Below, piece by piece: positions 6,462 through 29,338 of a stretch of DNA of 53,850 nt. The translations under genes and the position numbers were made by a program. The DNA comes from Bacilli bacterium. GTDB taxonomy: Bacteria; Bacillota_I; Bacilli_A; RF39; UBA660. The notes beneath the pieces were generated by a model, which ran no database searches, was not told where the DNA came from, and saw only the letters and a program-made list of their open reading frames with translations. The DNA lies in NCBI GenBank assembly GCA_028699175.1, contig JAQVVC010000001.1:1-53850 (forward strand), read 5' to 3'. Each line of letters opens with the position of its first letter. Positions within the stretch are counted from its first letter, which is position 1.

Positions 6462-6473
6462 GGAGAGATTATA

Positions 6474-7523: not shown

Positions 7524-7538
7524 TAAATAAGAAAATAC

Positions 7539-7565
7539 GACACAAAATACAGTGTCTTTTTTTTA
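7539..7565 (+). terminator. weak intrinsic terminator after ftsZ
   Basis: gacac-aaaataca-gtgtc followed by T9. The stem is only 5 bp. Confidence 0.45.
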
Positions 7566-7577
7566 TAATCAATTTAG

Positions 7578-9040: not shown

Positions 9041-9050
9041 TTTGAATAAA

Positions 9051-9091
9051 AAAAGCTCCTTAAAACCAAGATAACTTTGGAAGGAGTTTTT
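9051..9091 (+). promoter_or_regulatory. hairpin that terminates the spoIIGA-sigE unit and sequesters the sigG ribosome-binding site
   Basis: aaaagctcctt (9051-9061) pairs with aaggagtttt (9081-9090) for about 11 bp including one G-U, with a 19-nt loop and a following T-rich tract. The 3' arm is the AAGGAG SD of sigG. Confidence 0.55.
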
Positions 9092-9094
9092 TAT

Positions 9095-9868: not shown

Positions 9869-9904
9869 TATATATTAAATTCCATATAATTAATTGGTGG
9901 TAAT

Positions 9905-10135
9905 ATGTTAATGAGTGATCTTCAAAGAAAAGATATAGTTAATATTATAAATGGAGTTAGGTTAGGTAAAATAGTTGATATAGATGTAACTAAAGAAGGT
10001 TATATTAACAGTTTAATAGTTGAACCAGTTAAATTAATGAGAAAAATAAGTTATGGTAATGAAGTAAATATTACCTTTAGTCAAATAGTTACTATTGGAA
10101 GTGATGTAATATTAGTTGATTTATCAATTAAATAA
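9905..10135 (+). CDS. YlmC/YmxH-family PRC-barrel sporulation protein
   Basis: 76 aa. LQRKDIVNIINGVRLGKIVDIDV...GYINSLIV fits the PRC-barrel YlmC/YmxH pattern. Located after sigG, as in many spore formers. Confidence 0.7.
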   Translation: MLMSDLQRKDIVNIINGVRLGKIVDIDVTKEGYINSLIVEPVKLMRKISYGNEVNITFSQIVTIGSDVILVDLSIK

Positions 10136-10185
10136 TTCATCTTTTTTTAATTTCATTTTAATGATAAAATAAGTATGAGGTATTT

Positions 10186-10659
10186 ATGAATAAAAAAATA
10201 TTAATTTATGCAAGTATAATTTTATTTTTAGATCAAATTTCGAAAATATTAGTTGATTTATATTTAAGTATCAATGATTCATTTCCAGTTATTAAAAATT
10301 TTTTTCATATTACCTATATAAATAATTATGGAGCAGCATTTGGAATATTAAATAATAAACTTTGGTTATTAATTATATTTACATTATTAGCTTTTTTTAT
10401 TATATATAGATATATAAATACTTTTAAAATAAATAAAAGAAATGAAATAGCTTTTAGTTTTTTATTAGGTGGAATATTAGGTAACTTAATCGATCGATTA
10501 TTTTTAGGATATATTAGAGATTTTTTAGATTTTAATATTTTCGGATATAATTTTCCGGTCTTTAATTTAGGAGATTCATTTATCTTTTTGGGAGCGATTT
10601 TATTAATAATAGCAATTTATAAAGGAGAAGACAATGCAAATAGTAGTAAATCAAGATAA
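10186..10659 (+). CDS. lspA: lipoprotein signal peptidase II
   Basis: NNYGAAFG, GNLIDRL and IRDFLDF motifs with 4 TM segments. Confidence 0.9.
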   Translation: MNKKILIYASIILFLDQISKILVDLYLSINDSFPVIKNFFHITYINNYGAAFGILNNKLWLLIIFTLLAFFIIYRYINTFKINKRNEIAFSFLLGGILGNLIDRLFLGYIRDFLDFNIFGYNFPVFNLGDSFIFLGAILLIIAIYKGEDNANSSKSR

Positions 10660-11524
10660 AATTAGAATTGATAAATATTTAAGTAATGTTACTGAATATT
10701 CCCGTTCTTTAATTCAAAAAATGATTGACGGAGGATATATATTAGTAAATAATAATAATATTAAAGTCAAGCATTTGCTTCAATATGGAGATATTATAAT
10801 AATAAAAGATGGCTTTATCAAAGAGTCCCATTTAGAACCTGAAAAAATAAAATTAGATATTGTCTATGAAGATCAAGATTTAATTGTAATTAATAAACCT
10901 TCCGGAATGGTAGTTCATCCTGGTAATGGTAATAAAACAGGTACTCTAGTTAATGCATTACTTCATCATACTAATAAATTAAGTAATAAAGAAAGTGACA
11001 TTAGGCCTGGTATTGTTCACCGAATTGATAAAGATACGAGTGGATTATTATTAATTGCAAAAAATGATCATGTTCATGAGTTGTTAGCTACGGAATTTAA
11101 AAATAAAACTATAATCCGGGAATATATTGCCCTTCTAATCGGAGAATTAAAAACTGATACAGCTACAATTGATGCTCCCATAGGAAGAGATGTTCATGAT
11201 CGCATGAAAATGAATGTAACTAATGTTAATGCTAAAAAAGCTGTCACTCATTTAACAGTATTAAATAGATATCAAGGTTATACTTTAGTTAATTTTAAAT
11301 TAGAAACGGGGCGAACTCATCAAATTAGAGTTCATGCTAAATATATAGGTTATCCAGTATATAATGATCCAGTATATACTAAAAATAAGTGTACATCTTT
11401 TGGTCAGTTTTTACATTCTAGTAAATTAGAGTTTATTCATCCTATTACAAAAAAGCATTTAATTTTTGAGTGTTCTTTACCGAAAGAATTCAATGATTTT
11501 TTATTTAATTTAGAAACCAAGTAA
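10634..11524 (+). CDS. rluD: 23S rRNA pseudouridine synthase, RluD family
   Basis: N-terminal S4 domain, catalytic HRIDKDTSGLLLIAK, and GRTHQIRVH. The lspA-rluD pairing is typical. Confidence 0.9.
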   Translation: MQIVVNQDKIRIDKYLSNVTEYSRSLIQKMIDGGYILVNNNNIKVKHLLQYGDIIIIKDGFIKESHLEPEKIKLDIVYEDQDLIVINKPSGMVVHPGNGNKTGTLVNALLHHTNKLSNKESDIRPGIVHRIDKDTSGLLLIAKNDHVHELLATEFKNKTIIREYIALLIGELKTDTATIDAPIGRDVHDRMKMNVTNVNAKKAVTHLTVLNRYQGYTLVNFKLETGRTHQIRVHAKYIGYPVYNDPVYTKNKCTSFGQFLHSSKLEFIHPITKKHLIFECSLPKEFNDFLFNLETK

Positions 11525-11963
11525 AAGTAAATATTATTATATTATAAACAAGCCAAAATAGATAAAATATTATCATATATGATAGTTTATTATTAATTTT
11601 TTTAGTTTCAATAAATAAATATAAAGTACTTATTAATATCGATATTATTGAAATTATAAATAATAATAAATTATTAATTTCATAAAGCATAAAATTATAT
11701 AGCCAGTTGGATAATAAATTTAATATCAAAGCAAATAGATAATTATTATTAATTTTTTCATACTTTATAATAGTAAAGATACTAGTTGTAATAAAAATAA
11801 AAGCAATAACTGAACCTAAATAATAAATTGACACATTTGGAATTAACCAAGTTAAATTTAAAGTATTAAAATAATTAATATCAAGAGGGAAAAATAAAAA
11901 AGGCATAAAGTATAAAAAGAATATTATCGTCATTGAAAAAGCATTTTTTATAATTATCATCAC
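11505..11963 (-). CDS. TspO/MBR-like five-TM membrane protein (divergent)
   Basis: 152 aa, polytopic. FPLDINYFNTLNLTW... and LILNLLSNWLYNF... echo the TspO pattern (FP-D--WY--L-KPSW; LN---N--W) from memory. A weak call. Confidence 0.4.
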   Translation of the reverse strand: MMIIIKNAFSMTIIFFLYFMPFLFFPLDINYFNTLNLTWLIPNVSIYYLGSVIAFIFITTSIFTIIKYEKINNNYLFALILNLLSNWLYNFMLYEINNLLLFIISIISILISTLYLFIETKKINNKLSYMIIFYLFWLVYNIIIFTFTWFLN

Positions 11964-12019
11964 CCTTTACATAACTAAAATTTTGTTATAAAATAATATA
12001 TGCAGAAGGAGAATATAAT

Positions 12020-13141
12020 ATGAGTTTAACTGTTAATAATAGAGATGAAATAATCATGAGATTAGTTCATTATTTTGTTACTGAAGAAAATTATCAACCA
12101 ATAATTGTAAATGGTGTTAAAAATGAAATCTGGCTTGAAAATTTAGAAGCTCCATACCGCATCATTCGTATTAATTCTAATTATATCCATAATAATGATC
12201 AATTAATTTTTGATAATTATAAAGTTAAAAGTATTGCTAAACAAGTAAAGAAAAAAACTTTATCTTTTAAAGTTAATATTTTAAATATTTTATTAGATTT
12301 AAATGAGGATATAAATATTCAAGAAGATAAAAATATCGATACTTTTAATATTAAAACTTTAAAAGATGTTAGAAAAGATAATGGATTATCAAGTCTTTTT
12401 CCAAAATTAAAAACCTTCACTTTAAATAAAGAGAATAATGTTGAATTAATTGTTAATATAACTAATGATATAAATAAAAAAACTGAAAAGAATAATATTA
12501 ATTATGAAAATATTTTTAAACCGAAGAAGATAATAGTTACTAAAGTGTTAATTGTAATAAATATTATGATGTTTATCTTTAGTGTTTTATATCCTAATAT
12601 TTTTAATTTATTTTTTCTTAATTCTGATTTAGTTAAAACAGGTGATTACTGGAGATTATTTACAGCGGCATTCCTACATGCTAATATAATTCATTTATTA
12701 GTAAATATGTATTCTCTATATATTATAGGAACTCAAGTAGAAACCTTTTTAGGGAAAAAGAAATTTTTAATTGTTTATTTTGGGACTGCAATATTAGCTA
12801 GTTTAATGTCTGCAGTTATTACGCAAGGTAATAGTGTTGGGGCATCAGGTGCTTTATTTGGTTTATTAGGATGCTTATTATATTTTGGTTATCATTATCG
12901 AGTATATTTTGGTAGTGTCTTAACAAGTCAAATTATACCAGTTATCGTAATTAACTTATTAATCGGATTTACAGTTCCGATGATCGATAATGCTGCTCAT
13001 ATAGGGGGCCTAATTGGTGGAGTATTTTTAACAATGGCTATTGGGGTAGGTAAGAAAGATGATAAAGCAACAATGATAAATGGGACCATAGTTAGTTTTA
13101 TTTATATGGCATTTTTAGCATATTTATTATTTTTAAATTAA
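12020..13141 (+). CDS. rhomboid family intramembrane serine protease (GluP-like)
   Basis: HLLVNMYSL, catalytic GASGALFGLLG and AHIGGLIGG. About 170-aa cytoplasmic N-terminal extension. Confidence 0.88.
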   Translation: MSLTVNNRDEIIMRLVHYFVTEENYQPIIVNGVKNEIWLENLEAPYRIIRINSNYIHNNDQLIFDNYKVKSIAKQVKKKTLSFKVNILNILLDLNEDINIQEDKNIDTFNIKTLKDVRKDNGLSSLFPKLKTFTLNKENNVELIVNITNDINKKTEKNNINYENIFKPKKIIVTKVLIVINIMMFIFSVLYPNIFNLFFLNSDLVKTGDYWRLFTAAFLHANIIHLLVNMYSLYIIGTQVETFLGKKKFLIVYFGTAILASLMSAVITQGNSVGASGALFGLLGCLLYFGYHYRVYFGSVLTSQIIPVIVINLLIGFTVPMIDNAAHIGGLIGGVFLTMAIGVGKKDDKATMINGTIVSFIYMAFLAYLLFLN

Positions 13142-15730: not shown

Positions 15731-16462
15731 ATGATTAAGATATATAAAATGGTATTTTTCATAGTAATTACTTTATTTATAAGCAATATAGAAGCGTTTT
15801 CAATAAGCACTACGTGTACTTATGAAGAGAAAGCCAATTTAAATGATATAGCAGGAAAAATCACTGCTAATTATAAAATTGATGAAATAAAAGAAAAATA
15901 TGAATTTACCAATCCTGATACGGGTGAAAAATCGATGGAAGAGCAAATAAATATTCAGTTTAATGTAAGTATTTATAATATATTAGATGATGTTTATATT
16001 GTTCAAACTAATGATTTTGATAGTGAAGAAGTAAGTATCTATTATGATGAAGCAACTAAAGGTGTATATACGTTTAAAACCGATAATACTTCTGATATCA
16101 TAAAATACACTTATAATATTTATTCGAACTTAGAAGGATGTCGAGGAGAAATATTAAAAACTTTTATTTTTACAAAACCAAAAATTAATATGTATTCTCA
16201 ATATGGAATATGCAAAGGTTTAGAAGATACTGATTTTTGTCAAAAGTATATAACAGAGGAATTAAATCTTACTGAAAGTCAACTTTATGAAAAAGTTAAA
16301 GCATTGCAAAAAACAACTGTAAAAGATAAAAAAGATAAGAATAATAAAGAGGGTATATCAGATTTTATAATTGATAATTATATTTATTTTATAATTGGTA
16401 CTGTTGTAATAGGTGGTACAGTTGTAGGATACATAATTGTTAGAAAAAGGAGTGCCCTATGA
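15731..16462 (+). CDS. secreted protein with C-terminal membrane anchor (first gene of the Tad-like operon)
   Basis: N-terminal signal-like helix and C-terminal TM (YFIIGTVVIGGTVVGYIIV) followed by RKRS. SD AAGGAG upstream. Stop overlaps the next start (ATGA). Confidence 0.6.
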   Translation: MIKIYKMVFFIVITLFISNIEAFSISTTCTYEEKANLNDIAGKITANYKIDEIKEKYEFTNPDTGEKSMEEQINIQFNVSIYNILDDVYIVQTNDFDSEEVSIYYDEATKGVYTFKTDNTSDIIKYTYNIYSNLEGCRGEILKTFIFTKPKINMYSQYGICKGLEDTDFCQKYITEELNLTESQLYEKVKALQKTTVKDKKDKNNKEGISDFIIDNYIYFIIGTVVIGGTVVGYIIVRKRSAL

Positions 16463-19400
16463 GACAATTAAAATATGGGATATTTTTATTAATAAGTTTA
16501 TTATTTATTACTGTAGAAGTGAATGCTAATACGGGAATATGTACAGGAAAAGACATGGATCCTTATGGCTATTGTAATATTACACCTGTTAAAATAGATG
16601 GTTCGGCAATTCCAGAACAACTAATTAAATTTACTGATGGTACATCAGCTATTATTAATAGTTATTCAGGTTTTGTAATTGATAGAAATCAAATGATGTT
16701 TTGCATCGATGCTAATCATAATGCTCCTGGAGATCAATTATATGGGCTTGCTAGGCCATTTGATGTAACAAGCTCAGCTTATGACCGCTCAATAGCTAAA
16801 GTTTATGGAGCTTATATTAATGAAGTAATATGGTTAATGAATCAAGGCAATTCTAAAGAGGCTGCTTATAATCGTTATTTACAAATGATAAATGTTGTAA
16901 TGAGAGCAATTACAATTAAATATGATTATTATATGCAAGGAGGATCCTCACAATTTTTTATTAATAATTTATTAGCATATGAAAATGTTGTTAAACAATT
17001 AGAGGGGTCAAAACCTACTGGTAAGAAATTACAAGAAGATGCTACTTATTACCCGATTCTTAAAAAATGGTATACAGAAGCAATGAGTGGTGCTCAGCCA
17101 GTTCAAATTAAACTTGATTTTAATTCAAAAAATGAAGATATTACTACTGAATATATTGGTAATAATTTTACTCAAACAATACCAGTAACAGTAAAAGGAC
17201 TAGGTGAGTTTACTAATCCTAAATATTCAGTTACCAATCCTAGTTTTAAAATTAAATCAGTAAAATGTGAAAATGAAAAATTAAATTGTAGTTTAGAAAA
17301 TACAACTCCTGTTAATACCAATTTATTATCAGGAATAACTGGGGATAAATTTGAATTTAAAGTTATTGTAAAAGGTGATAAAACCAACTTTTTAGATGAA
17401 TCTTCAACAAAAGTTATTATTGAATACGAAAAATATCATATTTTAGATATTGATAATTTAGCAGTTTTAAGATATTCAAATACCGAGCAACAAAGACAAA
17501 GAATGATAGCATTAATGCCTGATACTCCTCAAACTGCATCAGTAAAAATAAATATATCTATGCCATCTATGTGTGAAGCAGAAGTTACTGGCGGAGTTCA
17601 AAAATATTTATATGGTGGTACACCAATGAGTGAACTTAATTATTTAAAAACAGGATGCTGCAATGTTGATTATGATTACTTGAAAAATGAGGAAGCAAAA
17701 GAATATTATTTAGACAATTGCTCTACGGGAGATATAATTCATTTAGTAAATGTATGCAATAATGAAACTAATGAAATGTCTCACTCTTATGTATACCAAA
17801 AAGAAATTAATAAAATAATGGATCAGGTTAATGGAGCAGAAGATATGTATATTAAGGGTTCTTATTCTCTTGGTACATTAAAAAACACCTTAAGTAATTA
17901 TGATAACAATATCGACCGTGTCTATTCTGAAGATGGTATATCTCCAAGAAATGATTATTGTAAAATGTATACTAGCGAAAAACAAGATATCTATTATCCT
18001 GGAACGGCTGAATCAACTGGTGGACAATTTTTTGTATTTCGTGAGATAGGTACAAACAAATTTTTACAACCTAAAGTAAATGGTGAAATTTATGCTAATT
18101 TTCATACTGATGTTAATAGATGGTTAGATGATTATAAAAAAGCAATAGAAAAAGAAAAAGAAGCTTATACTAGTTGGCAAGAAGCTGCTGCTTTAGAAAA
18201 TGCAATAGGTAAATTAACTAGTTGTTATTCTTCTGGCGATTGTGGTTGTTGCAGCGATAAATGTACAGGAAGTTGTAAAACAAGATATAGCGGATCAAAT
18301 ACAGCATATGCCGATGCTGGCACTTATTTTAAAGCAGATGGCACTGATTTAAAAACTGTTAGAGCTCGACAATCATGTGGTTGTGGATCTAGTTCTAGAA
18401 CATCAAAACCATCACCTTCAGCTTCTCAAAGAAGAAACACTTATAATAAAGCTAAGGCGGATAGAATTAAATTAGAAGATTTTAAGGAAGAATGTGAAGC
18501 GAAAACCAATATTAAAGATGATTGGAAATATCAATTATCTCCTGAATTAACTTTTTATTACAAACAGAGAATAAATGCAGAAAGTGAAGATGCCCCAAAT
18601 CCCGCAGAATTACTAACTGAAAGTGTACCGATGGAAATTTCTAAAGAAAAGGTTAAATATTGGGAAGGAATAAGTCAAAATCCGATTGAAAAATCATATT
18701 TTGGAAAACCAGAAAAAATTATAATTGATGAAACATATGGAGATGCAAAAGGTGATCGAATAATCGAGTTTCCTTATGATAAAACTAAAGATTATCAAAT
18801 TGGTTATACTCAAGAATTATTTTATAAACCCTCTGTATATTATTATAGTTTAGTGCCTTCAGGTAAATATATTAAATCACAAGAGAAAAAAGAAGGGAAA
18901 AGCGTCTTAGATGTTGGATATGTATTTAATATTGACATAACAAATTATGAAGGTTTTTATGAAACATGGTTTGAAATAGAAAATATTGGTCATTTAATGA
19001 AAGATCCAGAAGATAAACCAAAATTAAAATCAAATATTCAAAAATCTGTTGATGACTACATTGACGATAATAAAGATAAATATTTAGATCATGAAGATAA
19101 AGTTAATACACAATTATTTGCAAGTAAATGCTTTTATCATAATAAAGAAGTATTATATAAAAGAGATTGTTTAGATTGTACTGATCCTAGTTTTGAAGCT
19201 CAATTCTTTTATCGTACTATTTCACTAAATAATGTTAATCCTAATGATCGTGTTAATACTAATTGGACGTCGACTAAAGGTGACCTAGCTAAAAAATCTG
19301 TTCAATCATTAGGTGATCAAATTTATAATGATAATACTAGAGAATATTTAGAATATTCATTTATATTAGACCCTAATGATATGAAAGATATAAAAGATTA

Positions 19401-19632
19401 TAATAATAAAAATAAATACAGTGATTTTCAATTAGAATGTGAAAATGGTAAAGAATGTGAAAGTGATTTTCTTACTTTGTGGGCGAAAAACTCTAATACT
19501 GAAGAATTATTAAATGATACAAGAAATAATAAATGGAAATATTTTATAAATGGAGCTTGGACTAGTGGTAATATATCTGATTTAATGGGAGGATATCCTC
19601 CAGAAACAAAAAATCTAACGGATTGGCCATAA
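16459..19632 (+). CDS. 1057-aa secreted cysteine-rich protein of unknown function
   Basis: Signal peptide MRQLKYGIFLLISLLFITVEVNA and no C-terminal anchor or LPXTG. Cys cluster SCYSSGDCGCCSDKCTGSCKTRY...SCGCGSSS. Translationally coupled on both sides. Confidence 0.7.
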   Translation: MRQLKYGIFLLISLLFITVEVNANTGICTGKDMDPYGYCNITPVKIDGSAIPEQLIKFTDGTSAIINSYSGFVIDRNQMMFCIDANHNAPGDQLYGLARPFDVTSSAYDRSIAKVYGAYINEVIWLMNQGNSKEAAYNRYLQMINVVMRAITIKYDYYMQGGSSQFFINNLLAYENVVKQLEGSKPTGKKLQEDATYYPILKKWYTEAMSGAQPVQIKLDFNSKNEDITTEYIGNNFTQTIPVTVKGLGEFTNPKYSVTNPSFKIKSVKCENEKLNCSLENTTPVNTNLLSGITGDKFEFKVIVKGDKTNFLDESSTKVIIEYEKYHILDIDNLAVLRYSNTEQQRQRMIALMPDTPQTASVKINISMPSMCEAEVTGGVQKYLYGGTPMSELNYLKTGCCNVDYDYLKNEEAKEYYLDNCSTGDIIHLVNVCNNETNEMSHSYVYQKEINKIMDQVNGAEDMYIKGSYSLGTLKNTLSNYDNNIDRVYSEDGISPRNDYCKMYTSEKQDIYYPGTAESTGGQFFVFREIGTNKFLQPKVNGEIYANFHTDVNRWLDDYKKAIEKEKEAYTSWQEAAALENAIGKLTSCYSSGDCGCCSDKCTGSCKTRYSGSNTAYADAGTYFKADGTDLKTVRARQSCGCGSSSRTSKPSPSASQRRNTYNKAKADRIKLEDFKEECEAKTNIKDDWKYQLSPELTFYYKQRINAESEDAPNPAELLTESVPMEISKEKVKYWEGISQNPIEKSYFGKPEKIIIDETYGDAKGDRIIEFPYDKTKDYQIGYTQELFYKPSVYYYSLVPSGKYIKSQEKKEGKSVLDVGYVFNIDITNYEGFYETWFEIENIGHLMKDPEDKPKLKSNIQKSVDDYIDDNKDKYLDHEDKVNTQLFASKCFYHNKEVLYKRDCLDCTDPSFEAQFFYRTISLNNVNPNDRVNTNWTSTKGDLAKKSVQSLGDQIYNDNTREYLEYSFILDPNDMKDIKDYNNKNKYSDFQLECENGKECESDFLTLWAKNSNTEELLNDTRNNKWKYFINGAWTSGNISDLMGGYPPETKNLTDWP

Positions 19633-19649
19633 GAGGATGTGAATAATAA

Positions 19650-20066
19650 ATGAAAGAAAGTTTATGGGGCTATTGGCTTGTGGTCTTAGGATTATTTATA
19701 ATATCGGTAATGATGTTGCTTCAAAATTATACAACAACAAATGAACAAGATTATTATTTATTAAAGGAAGTAACTGAAGCTTCAATGGCTGAGTCAATTG
19801 ACCTTGCTCATTATAGATTATATGGTGAAGTTAGAATTATTAAAGAAAAGTTTGTTGAAAATTTTTTAAGAAGATTTTCTGAAACAGTAAATATTAATAA
19901 AACTTATAAAATTGATTTTTATGATATTTATGAAGCGCCACCAAAGGTAAGTGTTAAAGTAACAACTAGTACTCAAGAATATGCTATAATGTCAGATACC
20001 GGTGATTTTGGGGTTGTTAATAAAATAGATTCAATTATTGAAGTATTAAATAATAAGGAGGAATAA
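19650..20066 (+). CDS. small N-terminally anchored protein (possible pseudopilin/TadE-like role)
   Basis: 138 aa with a single N-terminal hydrophobic helix (WGYWLVVLGLFIISVMMLL). No canonical prepilin cleavage motif seen. Confidence 0.5.
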   Translation: MKESLWGYWLVVLGLFIISVMMLLQNYTTTNEQDYYLLKEVTEASMAESIDLAHYRLYGEVRIIKEKFVENFLRRFSETVNINKTYKIDFYDIYEAPPKVSVKVTTSTQEYAIMSDTGDFGVVNKIDSIIEVLNNKEE

Positions 20067-20068
20067 GA

Positions 20069-20896
20069 ATGGGAAATATAGGGATATCGATAAAAAGATT
20101 TTTAGGTAATAAAAATACAGTTACAATTTTAGGTGTTATAATTGGAATATTAGTATTATATTTTGGTTATAACTGGCGAGTAAATCAAGCGATTGAACCT
20201 CTAACTGTTCCTTTTGCTAAAGAAGAAATACTTGGTAATGAACTTATTACTGATGAGAAAATCGGAACTGTTAAAGTTTCTAAAAACATGGTTGATACTA
20301 CTGATACTCTAATTACTAATCAAGCTCAAGTTAGAGGTAAATATGTTAGGTATGATACAACTATTCCTAAAGGAGGACTATTTTACAGTACCCAATTAAT
20401 GCTCGAAGAAGAATTACCTAATTCAGTTATAAAGGATATACCAGAAGGATACACTTTATATAGTTTAGCAGTTGATTTACATAGTACTTATGGTAATTCA
20501 ATAATGCCAGAAGATTATATAGATTTATATTTCAAAGCTGTAAATGATAATAAATTTGTTATGTTTGGTAAATTTATCGAAAGCATCAAGGTTTTAGCCG
20601 TAAAAGATTCGGCTGGAGAACATGTGTTTTCATCATCTTCTGATGGTGATCCTGCAGAATTATTATTTGCTGTACCTGATGATTATTACTTACTTTTAAG
20701 GAAAGCTGGTTTTATAACTACCAATAATATCGAAATAATTCCGGTACCAAGAAATAAAGATTATAGTGAAAATCCTACTGATACAGTAATTACTAGTGAA
20801 GAAATCAAAGCTTTTATTAATTCAAAAGCAGTAGATGCTAGGCAAAATGTTGGAACTAATCCAATTGATACAGAACCAATAGAAGTAGCAGAATAA
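20069..20896 (+). CDS. CpaB/RcpC-like pilus-assembly protein
   Basis: N-terminal TM and a SAF-like segment (PFAKEEILGNELITDEKIGTVKVSKNMV). Then GYTLYSLAVDLHSTYGNSIMPEDYIDLYF and IKVLAVKD follow the CpaB pattern. Confidence 0.55.
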   Translation: MGNIGISIKRFLGNKNTVTILGVIIGILVLYFGYNWRVNQAIEPLTVPFAKEEILGNELITDEKIGTVKVSKNMVDTTDTLITNQAQVRGKYVRYDTTIPKGGLFYSTQLMLEEELPNSVIKDIPEGYTLYSLAVDLHSTYGNSIMPEDYIDLYFKAVNDNKFVMFGKFIESIKVLAVKDSAGEHVFSSSSDGDPAELLFAVPDDYYLLLRKAGFITTNNIEIIPVPRNKDYSENPTDTVITSEEIKAFINSKAVDARQNVGTNPIDTEPIEVAE

Positions 20897-20924
20897 AGTT
20901 TAAGAATAAAAAGGAGGCCCAAAA

Positions 20925-22025
20925 ATGACAGATGCAATTTTTTCACAATTAGATTTTGGTCCATTAAATGAATTTATTAACGATGATAATATTACTGATG
21001 TTTCATACAGCAATGGGGGTCAAGTTTGGCTAAAAACCCTTGATAAAGGGGTATATCAGGTTCAAAGGCCAGAAATTAATAATGCTTTAATGGAAAAGCT
21101 TGCCTTTCAGTGTTCAAATGTCATGGGAAAAACATTTAATATGGCTCATCCATTTTTAGATGCTGAAAGTGCTGAACTTCGTTTGAATTTTGTTCATGAT
21201 TCAATCGCAACAAATGGAATAGCTTGTGTTATTCGTAAAACACCAGCTAAAATAAGATTAAAAAAAGAAAAATTATTAGATGAAAAATATGTTACATTGC
21301 AAGTACATGATTTTCTTATTAAATGTGTTGAAGGGCATTGTAATATTATTGTTAGTGGTGAAACTGGTTCAGGTAAAACCGAACTTGTTAAATATCTAGC
21401 AAGTCATACAAAAGAAGATGAAAAACTTATTACAATTGAAGATACATTAGAACTTCACCTTGATAGAATATTTCCTCATCGTGATATAGTGGCGATGAAA
21501 ACAAACAATATTGCTTCTTATTCTGATGTTCTTGTTACTTGTATGAGACAAAATCCAAGATGGATTTTATTATCTGAAGTACGTAGTGCAGAAGCGGTAA
21601 TGGCAGTTCGTAATTCTATTTCATCAGGTCATAATATTTTATCTACTATTCATTCAGATAAAGCTGAAAGTATTCCAATGAGAATGTATTCACTACTTGA
21701 AGGGGATCAAGATATTGAGCAATTTTTATCTTCCATTCATAGATATGTTCAACTTGGAGTATATGTAAAAGGTTATATGAGCAAAGAACGAGGTAGGTTT
21801 CATCGAGAAATAATGGAAGTTTGCGAATTTTTTGTTGATGAAAATAATGTCGCTTGTAAGAATATTATTTATAAAAAAATGATGGATGGAACCTTCTTTA
21901 TGAAAAATCCAACTAAATATTTGCTTGAGTATTTATCAATACAAGGGGTAATTCTTCCAAGTGATACATTTAAATTAGGCAGTGAAAATGACGGAAGTCA
22001 AAAAGAAGTCAAAATGACTTCATAA
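20925..22025 (+). CDS. CpaF/TadA/VirB11-family secretion ATPase
   Basis: Walker A VSGETGSGKTE, Asp box ITIEDTLEL, Walker B RQNPRWILLSEVR and His box GHNILSTIHS. Confidence 0.85.
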   Translation: MTDAIFSQLDFGPLNEFINDDNITDVSYSNGGQVWLKTLDKGVYQVQRPEINNALMEKLAFQCSNVMGKTFNMAHPFLDAESAELRLNFVHDSIATNGIACVIRKTPAKIRLKKEKLLDEKYVTLQVHDFLIKCVEGHCNIIVSGETGSGKTELVKYLASHTKEDEKLITIEDTLELHLDRIFPHRDIVAMKTNNIASYSDVLVTCMRQNPRWILLSEVRSAEAVMAVRNSISSGHNILSTIHSDKAESIPMRMYSLLEGDQDIEQFLSSIHRYVQLGVYVKGYMSKERGRFHREIMEVCEFFVDENNVACKNIIYKKMMDGTFFMKNPTKYLLEYLSIQGVILPSDTFKLGSENDGSQKEVKMTS

Positions 22026-22044
22026 TATAAAATGGAGGTGCATA

Positions 22045-22938
22045 ATGGAATTAATTGTTTTATTATTAATAGCAATATTTGTATTAACATATCGAAAAAA
22101 TACCGGCGATAATTTTTATAAATTTCTTATGAATGAATTAGGAAATATTTATGGTAAATATGCACCTTATAGCTTTCAAATGGTCCGAGAAAAAACAAAA
22201 GAATTAGGGCAAGAATATACCGTGAAAGAATATATTTCCCAAATTACGATATTCGGTTTTTTAGGAGCCGTAGTAGGATTTTTATATTTTCAAAGTATAA
22301 TATGGGCAATTTGTTATGGTTTAGTTGCAATAGCTTTTATACCCTTTTTAGCTTATTTAAGATGTCAAAGAGTATATAGTGAGTATATATTTGAACAAAT
22401 CCAAGTGTATACAACTAATGTTATTATGGAGTTTAATACAACACAAAGTTTTGTTAGAGCTTTAGAAGGTGTAGCAGAATCAGGAGTACTAGAAAGTCCA
22501 GTATTAGATGATGTTAAATTAATGATTGATTTATCTTATCAAAATGGTACGATAGATGAATCTATTCAATATTTTGATAATAAATATCCTTATTATATGG
22601 TTAAAAATATGCATCAATTATTTTTACAAATAACTAAAGAAGGAGCTAAAGATTCAGGAGAATCACTAGAAAATATGCTTCTAGATATTGATATGCTTGT
22701 TGAAGGTGTATATCGTGATAAAATGGATCGAGCAACATTTCATAAGAAATTTTTGACCTTTGGTTTTGCCTTATATTTTTTAGTTATGTTAACTCAATTT
22801 CTATTAGGTAGTGATAATTATATAAAAATGTTAGAAGAATGGTATGTTCAGTTTTTACTTCATGCTATTTTAATCATAAATACCTACTTCTTAATAAATG
22901 GCGAGAAATTTTATAATGAAGATACGGGGGCTGAATAA
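22045..22938 (+). CDS. TadB-like (T2SSF-family) inner-membrane platform protein
   Basis: N- and C-terminal TM helices flank a cytoplasmic helical domain with the T2SSF-like pattern. Directly follows the ATPase. Confidence 0.55.
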   Translation: MELIVLLLIAIFVLTYRKNTGDNFYKFLMNELGNIYGKYAPYSFQMVREKTKELGQEYTVKEYISQITIFGFLGAVVGFLYFQSIIWAICYGLVAIAFIPFLAYLRCQRVYSEYIFEQIQVYTTNVIMEFNTTQSFVRALEGVAESGVLESPVLDDVKLMIDLSYQNGTIDESIQYFDNKYPYYMVKNMHQLFLQITKEGAKDSGESLENMLLDIDMLVEGVYRDKMDRATFHKKFLTFGFALYFLVMLTQFLLGSDNYIKMLEEWYVQFLLHAILIINTYFLINGEKFYNEDTGAE

Positions 22939-22940
22939 CG

Positions 22941-23729
22941 ATGTTAATAGAAGTCTTATTATTAGGAGTCCTTTTATATATTATCTTAGAATATAATGGC
23001 AGTATTAGTACTAATAAATTTATTATTGATAACAGTAATATATTTATAAAATTAAAAGAAAAAGATTATGATTTTTATGTTAAAGCAAAATATGGAGATT
23101 CAATTGATGTTGAAAAATTATTTAATATTAGATTGCGAAATGGTTTGTTTGTGATACTAATAATGCTCTTTCTTTTTATAACTAATATAAATTTTGCCAA
23201 TATTTTATTTTGTATAATAGCGGGTTATGGAGTATATAAATTATCTTATTTGTCACTTAAAAAATATTATAAAACTCATTTACATACAATAGATTTAATG
23301 CTTCCTTATTATTTAAAAAATTTAGAAATATTAGTTCAACATTATACTGTTCCAGTTGCATTAGGTAAATCAGTAGAAGATGCTCCTAAAATTTTTAGAG
23401 AAGGCTTAAAAACTTTAATTGAAAAAATTAATGCCGGTGATAGTACTATTAATCCTTATATGGATTTTGCTAAAGATTATCCTGTAAGGGATTCAATGAG
23501 AATGATGAGGTTATTATACCGTTTAAGTCTAGGTAGTAATGAAAGAAAACAAGAGCAATTATTAACTTTTTCTCGTAATATATCGAATTTACAACAAAAA
23601 GCTAGAGAATCAAGATATAAAGAAAGATTAGAAAAGATGGAAAGTAAAACAATGGTTATGTTAGTAACTACAGGGGTAGGAGTAATGGTATTGTTAATTA
23701 TTTCAATTTTGATGATGTTTACATCTTAA
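22941..23729 (+). CDS. TadC-like (T2SSF-family) inner-membrane platform protein
   Basis: Same architecture as the previous gene (LPYYLKNLEILVQHYTVPVALGKSVEDAP..., C-terminal TM). Confidence 0.5.
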   Translation: MLIEVLLLGVLLYIILEYNGSISTNKFIIDNSNIFIKLKEKDYDFYVKAKYGDSIDVEKLFNIRLRNGLFVILIMLFLFITNINFANILFCIIAGYGVYKLSYLSLKKYYKTHLHTIDLMLPYYLKNLEILVQHYTVPVALGKSVEDAPKIFREGLKTLIEKINAGDSTINPYMDFAKDYPVRDSMRMMRLLYRLSLGSNERKQEQLLTFSRNISNLQQKARESRYKERLEKMESKTMVMLVTTGVGVMVLLIISILMMFTS

Positions 23730-23753: not shown

Positions 23754-23775
23754 TGACAAATTTGTCATTTTTTTT
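23754..23775 (+). terminator. perfect 14-bp palindrome plus T-run after the Tad-like operon (terminator or operator)
   Basis: tgacaaatttgtca (23754-23767) followed by T8. The stem would be short, so an operator role is equally possible. Confidence 0.35.
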
Positions 23776-23820: not shown

Positions 23821-24214
23821 GCTTAAGGTAAATTAGAACAATCAATTAATGACTTGCATAATTTTTCCAAAAGAAAAGTTATGCATAAAAATTATTAGAA
23901 ATAATAATTTTATAAATTTATTTATTAAATTTAACAAAATAATTTTTACTAAAATTAAAATTATTAAAAATTTAATAAATGATAATTAATTTTGTTTTAA
24001 TTAAAGTAATGAAGTTTTACGAAAGTAAAATCTTATCTACGGTAAGCGGGACAATTGTTTTCGGAGAGTGTGTTACTCCAAATGATAGGTAGTTACCGGG
24101 TTGTACTGATAATACTCCGCAATCATATATATTATATTTTTAATTAAATATAATGTGTATTGTGACTATTCATCAAACCAGACTAGATAATTTATCAGAT
24201 TATCTAGTTTTTTT
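23821..24214 (+). ncRNA. unassigned non-coding transcript with structured GC-richer core and intrinsic terminator
   Basis: No SD-preceded ORF. GNRA hairpin gttttac-GAAA-gtaaaat (24014-24031). Helix cggtaa (24040-45) / ttaccg (24093-98) encloses ggag/ctcc pairings. Strong terminator ctagataa...ttatctag plus T7 (24181-24214). Confidence 0.45.
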
Positions 24215-24272: not shown

Positions 24273-25400
24273 ATGAATGATTGGATTAGTGTGTATAAAA
24301 AAAATAAAAAAACAAATCTTTATCAATATATGTATTTAATATCCAACATATTGTCCATTGATAATAAAAAAATCTTAGGTAGTAAAAAAAGAACCTCTGA
24401 AATTTTAGAAAAAATATGTGAAATATATATCGACGAGATTTATTTAAATAATAATAAGAAAATTAATTTAAGTAACATGTTTATAGAAAATAAATATATT
24501 GATGATTATAAATTACATAAAGAAATATATTCGGTGATCAAATTTTTTATAAAAAATAATATTGTTCTTGATATTAAAAATAATGAAAAAGATATTATCT
24601 TAATTGCAGTATTTATTAAATTAGCTATCGAATTGGACAGTTTAACAAATCCATTTACAAATGAAAAAATAAATATATATAATTTAGCTACTGAATATAT
24701 AAATTTATATCACAAAATAGATTTTATTTATTTGATAGATCAAGGTAAGAAGAATACTAAGTTATTAATTGATGCAATTAAAATAAACTTTGTAAAAGAA
24801 AAAAAGTTTTTTAGTATTTTAACAAGTGATAACTCATTTAATAAATATATTAGAATAAATGAAAATGTTCCCTATTATATTACTCAATATAATTACTATA
24901 TTAAAAGTTTAGAAAATTATAATCCAAAACCGATAAAAAATGTTTATGAAACATCAAAAATAGATGAGCAATTCACTTTTATAAGTATTGAATTAGCAGT
25001 TATTACTTTAGTAAAAGAAATCGCAGTTCAAAAAGATTTAAGCACTTTCTTAATTCCTGTTAAATTAGATTTTTTTGAAAAAGACAAAAATATAAAGGAT
25101 TTAAAATCAATATTTGAATTAAAAATAATCAATAAAAAAATAAAAATACTTATAAATTATGATGATATAAATAATAATTTACTTAATATATTAAAAAGAA
25201 ATAAAATAGATTATTATATATATTGTAATAAAAATGCAACTATAACCAATTTTGAAGAGAATGAAAAATATGTTTTTAGTAAAGAATTTATTAAAAAATA
25301 TCAACTTGAAGCAAGAAATAACGTTATACTAGAAACAATAAATGTATATATGAAAGATAATGATATATTATTTTTGAAAGGTAAGGAGAATAAAATATGA
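24273..25400 (+). CDS. hypothetical cytoplasmic protein (cassette gene 1)
   Basis: 375 aa, very Lys/Asn/Ile-rich, with no TM and no motif recognised. Stop overlaps the next start (ATGA). Confidence 0.6.
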   Translation: MNDWISVYKKNKKTNLYQYMYLISNILSIDNKKILGSKKRTSEILEKICEIYIDEIYLNNNKKINLSNMFIENKYIDDYKLHKEIYSVIKFFIKNNIVLDIKNNEKDIILIAVFIKLAIELDSLTNPFTNEKINIYNLATEYINLYHKIDFIYLIDQGKKNTKLLIDAIKINFVKEKKFFSILTSDNSFNKYIRINENVPYYITQYNYYIKSLENYNPKPIKNVYETSKIDEQFTFISIELAVITLVKEIAVQKDLSTFLIPVKLDFFEKDKNIKDLKSIFELKIINKKIKILINYDDINNNLLNILKRNKIDYYIYCNKNATITNFEENEKYVFSKEFIKKYQLEARNNVILETINVYMKDNDILFLKGKENKI

Positions 25401-26905
25401 ATGTATATGGGGAATTTTTCCTAAAGTTTATGGAGCCCTTTTTTGGAGGTATAATAAGTTTATTTACTGAACTAGGTAAGTCACTTTTTAGAATATTTAA
25501 TATCCTTACTTATATTGATATTATTAAAGAATATATAACTGAATTAAGTGGCATAGGAATAGTTATGGTAGTTATAGCTACACTTTGCTTATTATTATTG
25601 TTTGGTTTATTCTTCTTCTTTGTTTATAAATTAATAAGTAATTTTGTAAAATATCGTCAAAGAATGAAACATCAAGAATCATTAGTTGAAGAAATAGATA
25701 ATTTAAATAATGAAGTTATAAAACTTAAAAGTGAAAATGAAAAATTTCTTAATATGACTGATCCTAATTCTGGTGAAATTGAGTATGATGAAGAGGGAAA
25801 TGTAATTAATAAATTATCAGAAGGTGAGAGCAGATTCTTTAAATTAACTCAAGTAGATAATATGATGGAAACTTATGAAGCAAAAATATATGCAGAAATT
25901 ACATCTTTAGAAAGTTTATGTCAAGATTTTTTAAATTATTCAGCTTCTAAATTAGGATTATATTATGATATTTCTTTAATAAGATTATTTGTAGCTGCAT
26001 TTGCTTCAAATAGATTGATAATATTGCAAGGTATATCAGGTACTGGTAAAACATCACTTGCATATGCTTGGGGAAACTTTGTCAATAATAATACTGTAAT
26101 AGCACCTGTTCAACCTTCTTGGCGAGATAGTTCAGAGTTATTTGGATATTTTAATGAATTTACGAAAAGGTTTAATGAAACTGAAGTATTAACTAAGATG
26201 TATGAAGCTAAATATCTAGATAATGTATATACAATATTGTTAGATGAAATGAATATATCACGTGTTGAATATTATTTTGCTGAAATGCTTTCGATATTGG
26301 AACTTCCATCGGCAGATGAATGGGTTATTGATTTAGTTCCGAATACATGGGCTAATGATCCGAAATTACTTGAAAATGGACGTTTAAAAATCCCATTTAA
26401 TATGTGGTATGTAGGGACAATAAATAATGATGATTCTACATTTATGATAACTGATAAAGTATATGATCGTGCTATGCCAATAAATATTGATACAAAAATA
26501 CCTCCATTTGAAGCTCCCGATACTGAAGCAATTAATTTATCAAGCAAGAACTTCATTGATTTATTTAATAAATCAAAAGATGAACATCCAGTTAGTGAAG
26601 AAACATTAAATAAAGTGGCTGAAATGGATGATTATGTTATAACTCATTTCCGGATTGCATTTGGTAATCGTATTGTCAAACAACTAAGAGATTTTATTCC
26701 TGCTTATGTTGCTTGTGGTGGTGATGAAATGGTGGCAGTTGATTACATAATTGCTCATAAGATATTGAGAAAGTTTGATCAATTAAATTTATCATATATA
26801 AGAAATGAAATAGATGGATTTATTACCTTTTTAAATCAAACATTTGGACAAGATGTAATGAAAGAGTGTATTATTTATTTAGAAAGACTTAAAAAAACAA
26901 TATAG
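25397..26905 (+). CDS. membrane-anchored, coiled-coil McrB-like AAA+ (AAA_5 / COG1401-type) NTPase (cassette gene 2)
   Basis: TM helix GIGIVMVVIATLCLLLLFGLFFFFVY and coiled coil ESLVEEIDNLNNEVIKLKSENEKF. Walker A ILQGISGTGKTSLA, then VQPSWRDSSELFGYFN. Walker B ILLDEMNISRVEYYFAEMLSILE and VGTINNDDSTFMITDKVYDRA. The last three are McrB-family hallmarks. Confidence 0.75.
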   Translation: MNVYGEFFLKFMEPFFGGIISLFTELGKSLFRIFNILTYIDIIKEYITELSGIGIVMVVIATLCLLLLFGLFFFFVYKLISNFVKYRQRMKHQESLVEEIDNLNNEVIKLKSENEKFLNMTDPNSGEIEYDEEGNVINKLSEGESRFFKLTQVDNMMETYEAKIYAEITSLESLCQDFLNYSASKLGLYYDISLIRLFVAAFASNRLIILQGISGTGKTSLAYAWGNFVNNNTVIAPVQPSWRDSSELFGYFNEFTKRFNETEVLTKMYEAKYLDNVYTILLDEMNISRVEYYFAEMLSILELPSADEWVIDLVPNTWANDPKLLENGRLKIPFNMWYVGTINNDDSTFMITDKVYDRAMPINIDTKIPPFEAPDTEAINLSSKNFIDLFNKSKDEHPVSEETLNKVAEMDDYVITHFRIAFGNRIVKQLRDFIPAYVACGGDEMVAVDYIIAHKILRKFDQLNLSYIRNEIDGFITFLNQTFGQDVMKECIIYLERLKKTI

Positions 26906-26920
26906 TAAAGGAGTAATGTT

Positions 26921-28021
26921 ATGACTGAAGGATTATTAGATTTAGTTAATAATGTCCCAACTGATGATTTAGATTTGTTTTCATCCAAAACAAAATCAAT
27001 ATTAACTGCAAAAAAATATGTTGAAAAAGTATCAGTAGATTTTTCATGGGTAGATGAGATTTATGAATCAATTCCTTATATCGACAATATAATTCGTAAT
27101 CCAAGGCGTTTTATTACTCAAGAAGAAGACGTAATTAGAATTGAAAAAGTTAAAAAAGTTAGTGAAGAATCAATAAAGCACCTAGCTCAACATACTTCTT
27201 TAATTCAAAAAGTTGATCAAGATGGAACGGTAAAACCGCTTAAATTATTAAATGTATTTAAAGAAGAAACAATTGATTTATATGAAAATAGATTTATTTA
27301 TTCATTAGTAAATAATTTAAATGTATTTATTCAAGGTCAGTTAATATATAAAGATGAAGAATCATTTAATAAAGAAGTTAAAACAGTTAATTATGAAGCT
27401 CAAACAAAATTTGAAAAAGAAGATATTACAATTAAACTTTTAATAAGATCAGCTAATTATGAAAACTTAACTATATCTAATGAAAAAGCCAAAGATTTAA
27501 AAGAAAAATTGAATTACATTGCTGATATTTTAGATGATTTTATGAGTAGTGTTTTTATGAAAACTATGAGAAATGCTACGCCAGTTAGATCACCAATTAG
27601 AAAAACAAATATAATACTTAAAGATGTTAATTTTATTTATGCTTTAAAATTATGGGAATTTTTAGAAGGCTTTCAAGTTGAAACACCTCTTAAAAAATAT
27701 AAAGAGACGATTGATTTAGCTAATAACAAACTCGATAGTAATTATGCTTTAACTTATTATTTAAATTATTATTTTTTAAATGATAGAGATCGTAATGAAA
27801 CTGATGAAACTAGTAAACATGCTGGTTTAAAAAAAATAATATTTGACACTGCTAAAGATTTTGATAATGATGAAATTGAATTAAGAAAATTATTAAATAA
27901 TGAATTAAAATTAGCGGCAAAGTATAAACAAGATCAAATAAAGGGAATTAGTATTTCATTTAAAGATTTTATTGATAATCATCGTAACAAAATGAAAGAA
28001 GCATTATTCATTTTAAAATAA
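26921..28021 (+). CDS. hypothetical protein in the McrC position, no PD-(D/E)xK motif visible (cassette gene 3)
   Basis: 366 aa with SD AAGGAG upstream. DLYENRFIYSLVNNL weakly recalls DUF2357/McrC-associated regions (from memory). I found no D...ExK nuclease signature. Confidence 0.55.
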   Translation: MTEGLLDLVNNVPTDDLDLFSSKTKSILTAKKYVEKVSVDFSWVDEIYESIPYIDNIIRNPRRFITQEEDVIRIEKVKKVSEESIKHLAQHTSLIQKVDQDGTVKPLKLLNVFKEETIDLYENRFIYSLVNNLNVFIQGQLIYKDEESFNKEVKTVNYEAQTKFEKEDITIKLLIRSANYENLTISNEKAKDLKEKLNYIADILDDFMSSVFMKTMRNATPVRSPIRKTNIILKDVNFIYALKLWEFLEGFQVETPLKKYKETIDLANNKLDSNYALTYYLNYYFLNDRDRNETDETSKHAGLKKIIFDTAKDFDNDEIELRKLLNNELKLAAKYKQDQIKGISISFKDFIDNHRNKMKEALFILK

Positions 28022-28048
28022 TTTTAAATTAATGGAAGGGAGAAAAAA

Positions 28049-29338
28049 ATGGCTAATAAAAATAAAAAAGAATCTAAGATTAACCCAATATTGGGCCGAG
28101 CTGGACAATCTATTGATTTAGTAAAATTTAATATTAAAAAGGAACAAGATCAGTTTACTGAAATCGAAAAAATATTAAAAGAAATATATCAAAATGATCT
28201 AAAAATTAATAGAAAACATATTTTAAAGTGTTTGAAATTAACCTGGTCAGTTAATGATGATTTTATATTTCTTCCTTTTAATTTAAAAGTTTCAAAAGAA
28301 AAATTCACTTTAAAATTTGATGTTCAACCTAAAAAAGGTATTGGTTTTGGTTGGGTAATATTCGCAATTTGGTTATTTTTATTTGCCTTTATTGGTGCTA
28401 CCTATGCTGGTTTTACATATCTAAGTATTGCAAATTTAAATAAAGATATTGATGGAGATGGAATAGCAGATATTAATATTGATATTAATAATGATAAATT
28501 AGCTGAAATAAATGTTGATATAAATAATGATGATATACCAGATTTAAATATAGATTATAAAGGAAATCGGAGAGCGGTATTTAATATTGATACGGATAAT
28601 GACCAAAAACCCAATTATAATATAGTAAATGATGCAACAGGTGGTAAAGCATGTTTAATTAATTGTGATTTAGATGGAGATGGATGGCCTGATATAAATT
28701 TAGATTTAGATGGTGATGGTATAATAGACATAGATATCGACACTGATAATGATAAAGTACCAGACTTAAATTTAGATGTAAATGGTGATGGTCTTTGTGA
28801 CATAATGTGTGATACAAACGGGGATAAAGTTTGCGATATTAAATGTATAAAAGTTGTAGAACAAAATGAAGATGTAAAAACCGGATCATCTACCCAAACA
28901 GGTGAAGCAAATGTCGAAACTTCTACACCATATTTATTAATAAATTATAATGATGGTATAACAGTAAATGTCAGAGGTCTGTTACCTGATGATCAACCTG
29001 AAATTGCTGGACTTCCAGTTGTAAAACCAGTTAAAGAATTTACTGTTGAGAATTTATCTGATTACCCTATATATTATGGTATAAGATGGAATGTAAGTAC
29101 CAATACCTTTGTATCAGATAATTTAAAATATACTATTCAAGGTACAAATGGGGCTCCCAATTTGGAACCTACACCTATGCCGGTAACATCAAGATCAATA
29201 TATGAGCGAGTATTAATTATGCCTAGAGTAACTCAAAAATTTAGGATTCAAATAAATCTTCATGGTACTGGATTACCTCAAAATGAAGATCAAGGGAGAG
29301 AATTTATAGGTCAAATTGAAATTAATTTAAATAATTAA
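28049..29338 (+). CDS. single-pass membrane protein with extracellular Asp-rich calcium-binding-type repeats and a C-terminal beta-rich domain (cassette gene 4)
   Basis: About 95-aa cytoplasmic head and TM GFGWVIFAIWLFLFAFIGATYAGFTYL. Repeats DGDGIADINIDINNDK / DLDGDGWPDINLDLDGDGIIDIDIDTDNDKVPDLNLDVNGDGLCD (DxDxDG, thrombospondin-type-3-like), then a roughly 140-aa C-terminal domain. Confidence 0.65.
   Translation: MANKNKKESKINPILGRAGQSIDLVKFNIKKEQDQFTEIEKILKEIYQNDLKINRKHILKCLKLTWSVNDDFIFLPFNLKVSKEKFTLKFDVQPKKGIGFGWVIFAIWLFLFAFIGATYAGFTYLSIANLNKDIDGDGIADINIDINNDKLAEINVDINNDDIPDLNIDYKGNRRAVFNIDTDNDQKPNYNIVNDATGGKACLINCDLDGDGWPDINLDLDGDGIIDIDIDTDNDKVPDLNLDVNGDGLCDIMCDTNGDKVCDIKCIKVVEQNEDVKTGSSTQTGEANVETSTPYLLINYNDGITVNVRGLLPDDQPEIAGLPVVKPVKEFTVENLSDYPIYYGIRWNVSTNTFVSDNLKYTIQGTNGAPNLEPTPMPVTSRSIYERVLIMPRVTQKFRIQINLHGTGLPQNEDQGREFIGQIEINLNN

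Follow-up and report, generated by a model that had tools for sequence, protein, structure and literature searches.

A seven-gene operon of an uncultured gut Bacilli lineage is probably the front half of a chromosomal cluster that joins a pilus-type assembly module to a pLS20-like type IV secretion system

The closest characterised relatives of the system described here are conjugative plasmids. The pLS20-family conjugation operon spans genes 34 to 54 and has been reported for the pAW63 family too; to our knowledge, Gram-positive type IV secretion systems (T4SSs) are generally said to lack a fibre. Of the pLS20 genes, 36 to 47 are listed with unknown function, 37 among them as a putative VirB11, and shortly before them gene 34 encodes an adhesin (PMC8557374). 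What could such a module be assembling, and what is it doing in a chromosome? This analysis concerns seven forward-strand genes, here called A to G in their order (Table 1), of a 53,850-nucleotide contig (JAQVVC010000001.1, assembly GCA_028699175.1) from a Bacilli bacterium of the GTDB lineage RF39, UBA660. The whole contig, referred to as the window, is contig C5 of a metagenome-assembled genome (MAG) of 805 kb in 73 contigs, 89% complete. An earlier, sequence-only reading took the seven genes for a pilin-less Tad-derived machine repurposed to export a giant Cys-rich protein. Comparison with relatives suggests something else: with a probability of roughly 0.65, the seven genes would be the proximal half of a chromosomal supercluster joining a pilus-type assembly module to a Gram-positive T4SS of the pLS20-operon kind.

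The likeness to pLS20 is one of gene order as well as of sequence. Hidden Markov models (HMMs) built for the families of C, E, F, G and a family of about 150 residues encoded farther on in relatives match pLS20 genes 36, 37, 38, 39 and 40 in order, with E-values of 2.9e-7, 4e-49, 1.7e-4, 1.1e-6 and 9e-4 (those for genes 38 and 40 scored against only 24 proteins). Searched against the whole genome with tblastn, the pLS20 proteins find C (through gene 36, E 1e-3), E (33% identity and 150 bits with gene 37, TadA), VirD4 on contig C32 and VirB4 on contig C39. In both systems a large surface adhesin stands in front of these five families, and VirD4, VirB6, a VirB3-like protein and VirB4 come after them. 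Homologues of the ATPase E occur on 648 plasmids; Bacillus accounts for 541 of these, and over half are typed as conjugative. A plasmid origin of the operon itself was considered and rejected, as neither megablast with the operon nor tblastn with C returned anything from 72,556 plasmids, the ATPase alone having plasmid homologues (about 31-33% identity). Unlike the plasmid operon, the present system belongs to the chromosome, is inherited vertically and occurs in nearly all members of one family, where relaxases of three families are almost never found; it has in addition a CpaB/RcpC-like protein, pilin-like genes of the MKEATGEL type and a protein in the position of TadZ, all of which pLS20 lacks; its adhesin is a Cys-rich giant unrelated to the thioester-domain protein of pLS20; and its two halves lie apart in this genome. 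Since the CpaB-like protein and the pilin-like genes are present, the module resembles Tad systems more closely than its pLS20 relative does.

What follows gene G in relatives? Locus counts and identities given here refer to the 80 best ATPase-matching loci (77-97% identity to E) of 585 matches confirmed in a collection of species-representative genomes; all 80 come from uncultured gut MAGs, most of them labelled Bacilli or 'Tenericutes'. Genes C-D-E-F-G are found in essentially all of these loci, with median identities of 56, 47, 81, 67 and 65% (the last, for G, over 74 loci). In locus L053, from Clostridium sp. CAG:609, G is followed by two small genes whose products start MKEATGELNMTVVTVVAIAAV and end in a Cys-rich knob. 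Next come two paralogous N-terminally anchored proteins of 150-170 residues, a 329-residue cytoplasmic protein in TadZ's position and two small proteins with two transmembrane (TM) helices each, which bear a weak likeness to T4SS pilins (PF18895 at 0.0016, Mbov_0395 at 0.024). This arrangement recurs: pilin-like open reading frames (ORFs) with the N-terminus MK[ED]A[TS]GEL (for example MKEATGELN), 65 in all, lie directly after G in 35 of the 80 loci, and the two anchored paralogues together with the gene in TadZ's position are found in 34. Aligned with hhalign, the two pilin-like paralogues are related at 4e-44 and the two anchored ones at 3e-51. The pilin-like proteins have a short charged leader, a Gly and then a hydrophobic helix.

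In close relatives (genomes G001, G004 and G416) such genes are found at a second locus. It begins with a giant Cys-rich protein, two anchored Cys-rich proteins and a 2-TM protein, and continues with a pilin-like protein of 76-83 residues, the protein of about 150 residues, the gene in TadZ's position, 2-TM proteins and a VirB6-like gene. The locus extends through a VirB3/TcpE-like protein to VirB4 in G001 and G004, beyond which G001 has an M23/lysozyme hydrolase, a GDSL/NlpC-P60 protein and VirD4; VirB4, VirD4, the VirB6-like protein and a wall hydrolase are thus together at this locus, as in T4SSs of the pLS20 type. Proteins of this distal half also match, weakly and in the same order, those of Mycoplasma integrative conjugative elements (Mbov_0395, pilin-like; Mbov_0396, a TM protein; Mbov_0397, VirB4), all NCBIfam matches falling below the curated cut-offs. 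These elements are mobile, and we know of no Tad-like ATPase module in them. Among the distal 2-TM proteins of G001 there is also a membrane-anchored Peptidase_C39-like cysteine protease (L098 3652-4551, minus strand; 2.9e-19), which could process the small 2-TM or pilin-like proteins; no homologue turned up in the assembly studied here.

The genome studied here carries the distal half as well. Its gene in TadZ's position lies on the 2961-bp contig C21, cut off at the contig end, and the next genes there encode two 2-TM proteins and a VirB6-like protein; the VirB4 on C39 and the VirD4 on C32 are 88% and 64% identical to those of G001. In this lineage, then, the cluster is broken after G, with its distal half on C21, C39 and C32. 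In the nearest genome, G416, whose ATPase and TadZ-position protein are 97% and 87% identical to those of this genome, an 83-residue pilin-like gene and a 150-residue gene lie directly upstream of the point that matches the start of C21. The sequence-only reading was right that neither in nor beside the operon, within the window, is there a pilin, a prepilin peptidase or a TadZ-type gene, and no Flp-type prepilin (G/XXXXEY) is found in the window; as a description of the machine, 'pilin-less' is not supported, given the pilin-like genes directly after G in related loci and in the nearest genome. Two candidate matches in this genome were discarded: a tblastn pilin hit on C46 lies inside an unrelated 563-residue protein, and a weak match to the A family on C43 is an unrelated sequence in the dcw region.

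Putting L053 (as far as the small 2-TM genes) together with the split second loci of G001, G004 and G416 (for the T4SS part) gives a composite order. It would run from A, the giant B, C, D, E, F and G to small pilin-like genes (one or two), anchored proteins of 150-170 residues (again one or two), the protein in TadZ's position and the small 2-TM proteins, and from there to the VirB6-like and VirB3-like proteins, VirB4, wall hydrolases and VirD4. The whole set appears to be contiguous in most family members.

Is this machine a passenger or a fixture of the chromosome? The distribution was followed in 399 genomes of the class, 50 of them from the window's own family (genomes of 0.7-1.6 Mb). The DUF5411 domain of protein C is found in 43 of the 50 family genomes versus 3 of the 349 elsewhere in the class, and one VirB4 orthologue (68-79% identity) in 48 of 49 family genomes, spanning all 40 sampled genera; distant second copies of VirB4 (24-32% identity) occur in five genomes. 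In most family genomes VirB4 lies 10-13 kb from the DUF5411 gene on the same contig, so the unsplit supercluster is the common and probably the ancestral state. At the loci compared, the ATPase is about 80% identical versus 45% for FtsW (MraY reaches 73% but is present in only two loci), and a phosphoesterase gene lies upstream in 38. A relaxase search limited to three families detected PF03432 in 1 of 12 genomes and PF02486 and PF03389 in none of the 12; tblastn with the pLS20 relaxase gave no match in this genome, and no integrase flanks the operon within the window. The locus is chromosomal and vertically conserved, and because the three common relaxase families are almost never found and inheritance is vertical, the system is probably a domesticated machine, not a mobile element.

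Table 1. The operon and its probable end (positions in the window)
Feature	Position	Strand	Description	Basis
A	15731..16462	+	243-aa Sec-exported protein, 4 Cys, C-terminal TM helix, short basic tail	ORF and translation
B	16459..19632	+	1057-aa Sec-exported protein, 25 Cys, no TM, no LPXTG anchor	Translation
C	19650..20066	+	138-aa DUF5411 protein, N-terminal TM running into a long helix, then a small alpha/beta domain	PF17424, E 6.6e-58
D	20069..20896	+	275-aa CpaB/RcpC-like protein, N-terminal TM, SAF and RcpC domains	RcpC weak match, E 0.007
E	20925..22025	+	366-aa CpaF/VirB11-family secretion ATPase	Pfam T2SSE, 2.3e-27
F	22045..22938	+	297-aa polytopic membrane protein in TadB's position	Position and topology
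G	22941..23729	+	262-aa polytopic membrane protein in TadC's position	Position and topology
Hairpin	23754..23775	+	AT-rich weak hairpin TGACA-aatt-TGTCA, then T8; probable operon end	Read from sequence; outside the criteria of the scanner, being too AT-rich

How Tad-like are the individual components? In the ATPase E the four boxes are legible in the translation (Walker A GETGSGKT, Asp box ITIEDTLEL, Walker B RWILLSEV, His box HNILSTIHS), which, with the T2SSE match, confirms the earlier assignment to the CpaF/TadA type. Among NCBIfam models, VirB11, TadA and TrbB are about equally near and all far from their cut-offs (100.9 bits versus 373 required for TadA), and the nearest PDB chains found by phmmer are CpaF (1.2e-17, 68 bits), VirB11 (4e-16) and FlaI (5e-15). 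E is the only T2SSE ATPase in this incomplete assembly. Although the window's own D matches weakly, 39 of 40 members of its family match RcpC (best 6.2e-7), 18 match SAF and 19 ChapFlgA; D can thus be called CpaB-like, and the same label in the sequence-only reading is upheld at the level of the family. The gene is duplicated in tandem in L053 and in many other loci.

The membrane proteins F and G are a different matter. The sequence-only reading called them T2SSF-like platform proteins, a label that comes from their position and topology, as every search for T2SSF homology was negative. Neither matches a Pfam or NCBIfam model, and hhalign shows no similarity of one to the other or of either to this genome's own PilC (probability below 1% against PilC). 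The F profile found nothing among PDB sequences, and the AlphaFold model of F, all helical with a predicted local distance difference test score (pLDDT) of 72, has no Foldseek match below E 2.5. Run against 1.84 billion protein representatives, the same profile collected 298 relatives, of which ten distant full-length ones have no T2SSF domain, and none of more than 8000 close metagenomic relatives of F carries a Pfam domain. A T2SSF identity of F and G was therefore dropped.

Protein C has invariant motifs in its family alignment, YEAPP among them. Its AlphaFold model (pLDDT 73) has a 47-residue helix (residues 2-48) and a sheet of four to five strands, a pilin-like lollipop topology. Foldseek gave no significant match for this model (best E 0.07, unrelated chains), a class III signal motif is missing from the N-terminus, and C was set aside as a recognisable pilin or pseudopilin. 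The alternative raised by the sequence-only reading, that the 138-residue C or the 243-residue A is a canonical pilin, was not borne out. In loci L054 and L061 the DUF5411 gene lies 3' of G instead of 5' of D, the ATPase ORF is longer (463-519 residues) and an extra ORF of 233-236 residues precedes D.

Compared with Tad/Flp pili (type IVc; Cpa of Caulobacter, Tad of Aggregatibacter), the module shares an ATPase whose nearest solved structure is of the CpaF family, a CpaB/RcpC-like SAF protein, two membrane proteins in the positions of TadB and TadC, and small pilin-like proteins. It differs in lacking an Flp motif and a dedicated TadV, in that no T2SSF domain is detectable and a TadZ/CpaE cannot be demonstrated, and in being embedded in a T4SS. 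Which peptidase would then process the pilin-like proteins? This genome has a single A24 prepilin peptidase, on contig C17 beside a PilC-like gene, and neither half of the cluster contains a dedicated TadV/FppA peptidase; relatives likewise have exactly one Peptidase_A24 gene per genome. The C17 genes (6129-12315) belong to a different system, a canonical type IVa pilus or Com-like set, with a pilin starting MILMRKGFTLVE, a 532-residue PilC-like protein and a 252-residue PilD, and the pilin, of the classical GFTLVE type, is encoded 5 kb upstream of the peptidase/PilC-like pair. PilB and PilT are not in this assembly; as most of the 14 relatives checked have both (PilB-like in 13, PilT-like in 11), their absence is probably an assembly gap. 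The protein in TadZ's position is conserved, has 330-360 residues and a degenerate P-loop-like motif, GxxNxTEHAGATT. Its gene has in-frame stops in two relatives (G419:C82:10759-11564 and G005:C3:33922-34767), which may reflect pseudogenisation or assembly error. Elsewhere in this genome, a second ParA/MinD-type protein, its KGGVGKTT loop canonical, is encoded between a 129-residue N-anchored protein and an FtsW-like gene (C30:3309-6862), and near it a 219-residue pilin-like protein, MKLNTKGISLVE.

At the front of the operon stand A and B. The Sec-type signal peptides of both, the C-terminal TM helix of A and the N-terminal one of C can be read from the translations, as had been noted before. 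A belongs to no Pfam or NCBIfam family; its orthologues, in 62 of the 80 loci at a median identity of 29%, are always 5' of the giant ORF, and its stop overlaps the start of B, a sign of translational coupling. A is probably a membrane anchor or partner for B. Wherever orthologues of A and C are both present (61 loci), a single giant ORF of 914-1962 residues lies between them, and the only widely kept segment of B is about 100 residues long (residues ~900-1000). The coupling between operon and giant is therefore real, and B is evolving very fast. Neither B nor six positional equivalents in relatives have a Pfam domain; the second-locus giant of G001, with Cadherin-like and Listeria-Bacteroides repeats, is the only giant that does. 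B is a hypervariable giant surface protein and probably an adhesin, and since it has its own Sec signal it is more likely displayed than exported as a substrate of the machine. The link in one operon between a Tad-like core and three further products (one anchored, one giant, Cys-rich and secreted, one small and N-anchored), to which the sequence-only reading had drawn attention, is thus conserved in all 61 of these loci.

These parts suggest a working model. The hexameric ATPase E would dock onto F and G, with D forming a ring or scaffold at the membrane's outer surface, and this module would polymerise the small pilin-like subunits to build a short fibre that crosses the wall. The fibre might be primed by C and its N-anchored relatives, C being a minor or priming subunit. 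A and B would be exported by Sec, A remaining anchored through its C-terminal helix and holding or presenting the fast-evolving, disulfide-rich B as an adhesin, in the way that the adhesin gene 34 of pLS20 precedes the same module. Contact would then let the VirB4/VirB6/VirD4 channel move a macromolecule.

Several observations weigh against this reading. The pilin-like proteins match no Flp or other pilin model in Pfam and have no Flp motif. Their presumed cleavage site has a Glu at +1, and the one from G004 (L100 7433-7663, minus strand) starts MKEASSELS, with Ser at -1 where all others have Gly; both features make processing by the single PilD doubtful. The pilin-like gene and the 150-residue gene were not found in this assembly, in a search of all six frames by regular expression and HMM. 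As G416 has both just before the equivalent of the C21 start, the missing pilin likely lies in an assembly gap, and we infer its presence in this organism from that nearest genome. A TadZ identity of the 330-360-residue protein gained no backing from Pfam, PDB or ParA-profile (hhalign) searches. F and G are linked to TadB and TadC by position and topology, pLS20 genes 38 and 40 are matched weakly in a search of 24 proteins, and the relaxase absence rests on three families in MAGs, which can miss genes. Lastly, eight of the 80 loci (L019-L022, L026, L032, L035 and L036) show D-E-F-G without detectable A, giant or DUF5411 in the available upstream DNA, several of them beginning just before D, and seven family genomes have no DUF5411 match yet retain VirB4. 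The front genes are thus possibly not obligatory, being dispensable or replaced in some genera.

How do other explanations fare? If the operon were a self-contained, pilin-less Tad-derived machine that exports or assembles the giant B with A and C, as the sequence-only reading proposed, one would understand the strict linkage of A, B and C to D-E-F-G (61 of 61 loci), the translational coupling of A and B, the operon standing alone with its own end in this lineage, and the failure of F and G to show themselves as classical pilus platform proteins. However, A and B, with their ordinary Sec signals, need no dedicated exporter, pilin-like genes follow G in 35 related loci and are present at the second locus of the nearest genomes, and the core is collinear with the pLS20 conjugation module and contiguous with VirB4 in most of the family; the operon makes up half of a supercluster that includes a T4SS. 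We disfavour this proposal and regard it as improbable. Could the genes instead encode a common Tad/Flp adhesion pilus whose closeness to a functionally separate T4SS is accidental, its pilins being processed by the PilD encoded elsewhere? This too is unlikely: the CpaB/RcpC-like protein, CpaF as the nearest solved ATPase, the pilin-like leader, Gly and helix and the one A24 peptidase per genome would all fit, but F and G give no T2SSF signal, there is no Flp motif or Flp Pfam match, no dedicated TadV and no demonstrable TadZ, and E scores 150 bits against pLS20 gene 37 (tblastn) versus 68 against CpaF (phmmer). Moreover, the order matches pLS20 genes 36-40, and the weakly T4SS-pilin-like 2-TM proteins and VirB6/VirB4 follow in the same direction.

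An integrated conjugative element, with a mobile T4SS, a mating pilus and an adhesin, spread horizontally among gut bacteria, seems very improbable. VirD4, VirB4, the VirB6-like protein, the hydrolases and an adhesin-like protein are the usual Gram-positive conjugation kit, and, as said, conjugative plasmids are the closest characterised relatives; against this stand one orthologous VirB4 in 48 of 49 family genomes and all sampled genera, an ATPase at least 77% identical over the best 80 matches, a phosphoesterase neighbour kept in 38 loci, the absence of each of the three relaxase families from 11-12 of 12 genomes and the lack of a flanking integrase in the window. A spoIIIA-type channel, considered because the organism sporulates, was rejected: no spoIIIA model is among the NCBIfam matches shown, and the gene order differs. 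The supercluster of pilus-type module and pLS20-like T4SS is our preferred explanation.

The genomic setting can be described briefly. The window has a G+C content of about 25%, and sporulation and cell-wall genes (lspA, rhomboid, FtsW/SpoVE, PBP and MraY) surround the operon. The seven ORFs were confirmed and their tight packing, as first described, was reproduced exactly: A and B overlap by 4 nt (16459/16462), gaps of 2 nt are found at 20066/20069 and 22938/22941, and the remaining gaps measure 17, 28 and 19 nt. Between the hairpin and the next genes, the GC-richer core of a non-coding stretch (24025-24119, forward strand) matches the Rfam PGK RNA motif below threshold (RF03040; 41.9 bits versus a gathering score of 50.8, E 8.5e-4, full model length covered). 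Downstream lies a cassette (24273-29338) with a McrB-like gene, a putative CoCoPALM system. CoCoPALM systems are reportedly McrBC-like and 'pilus assembly linked' (Bell et al. 2024, PMC11090510), and a functional link to the operon was considered. Consistent linkage of the McrB-like cassette to pilus-type genes was not seen: the cassette is adjacent to the operon in 7 of 80 loci, in the closest relatives only, and the McrB-like gene is found in 20 of 49 family genomes and 16 of 40 genera, in two copies in two genomes and mostly on other contigs than the T4SS/pilus cluster. With so patchy and unlinked a distribution the link was rejected; the cassette is not part of the system and marks the cluster breakpoint in this lineage.

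What would the supercluster mean for biology? The only studied relatives of the module, pLS20 genes 36-47, are still 'function unknown' in a model conjugative plasmid. The addition of a CpaB-like protein and clear pilin-like genes to a pLS20-like module argues that the VirB11-type ATPase of Gram-positive T4SSs drives fibre assembly. In a widespread, uncultured gut lineage with reduced genomes, nearly all members have the machine as a fixed part of the chromosome, and this fixation, together with the lack of a relaxase of the three tested families in 11 of 12 genomes, suggests a takeover for a function central to their way of life, for example contact, uptake or exchange. One may go further and speculate, tentatively, that the supercluster is a domesticated organelle, with no relaxase detected, that defines the family: a wall-spanning fibre tipped or flanked by fast-diversifying Cys-rich adhesins, docking onto neighbour cells for the VirB4/VirD4 import or exchange of DNA or other macromolecules. 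If this were true, it would be the Gram-positive equivalent of the pili that ultra-small episymbiotic bacteria rely on.

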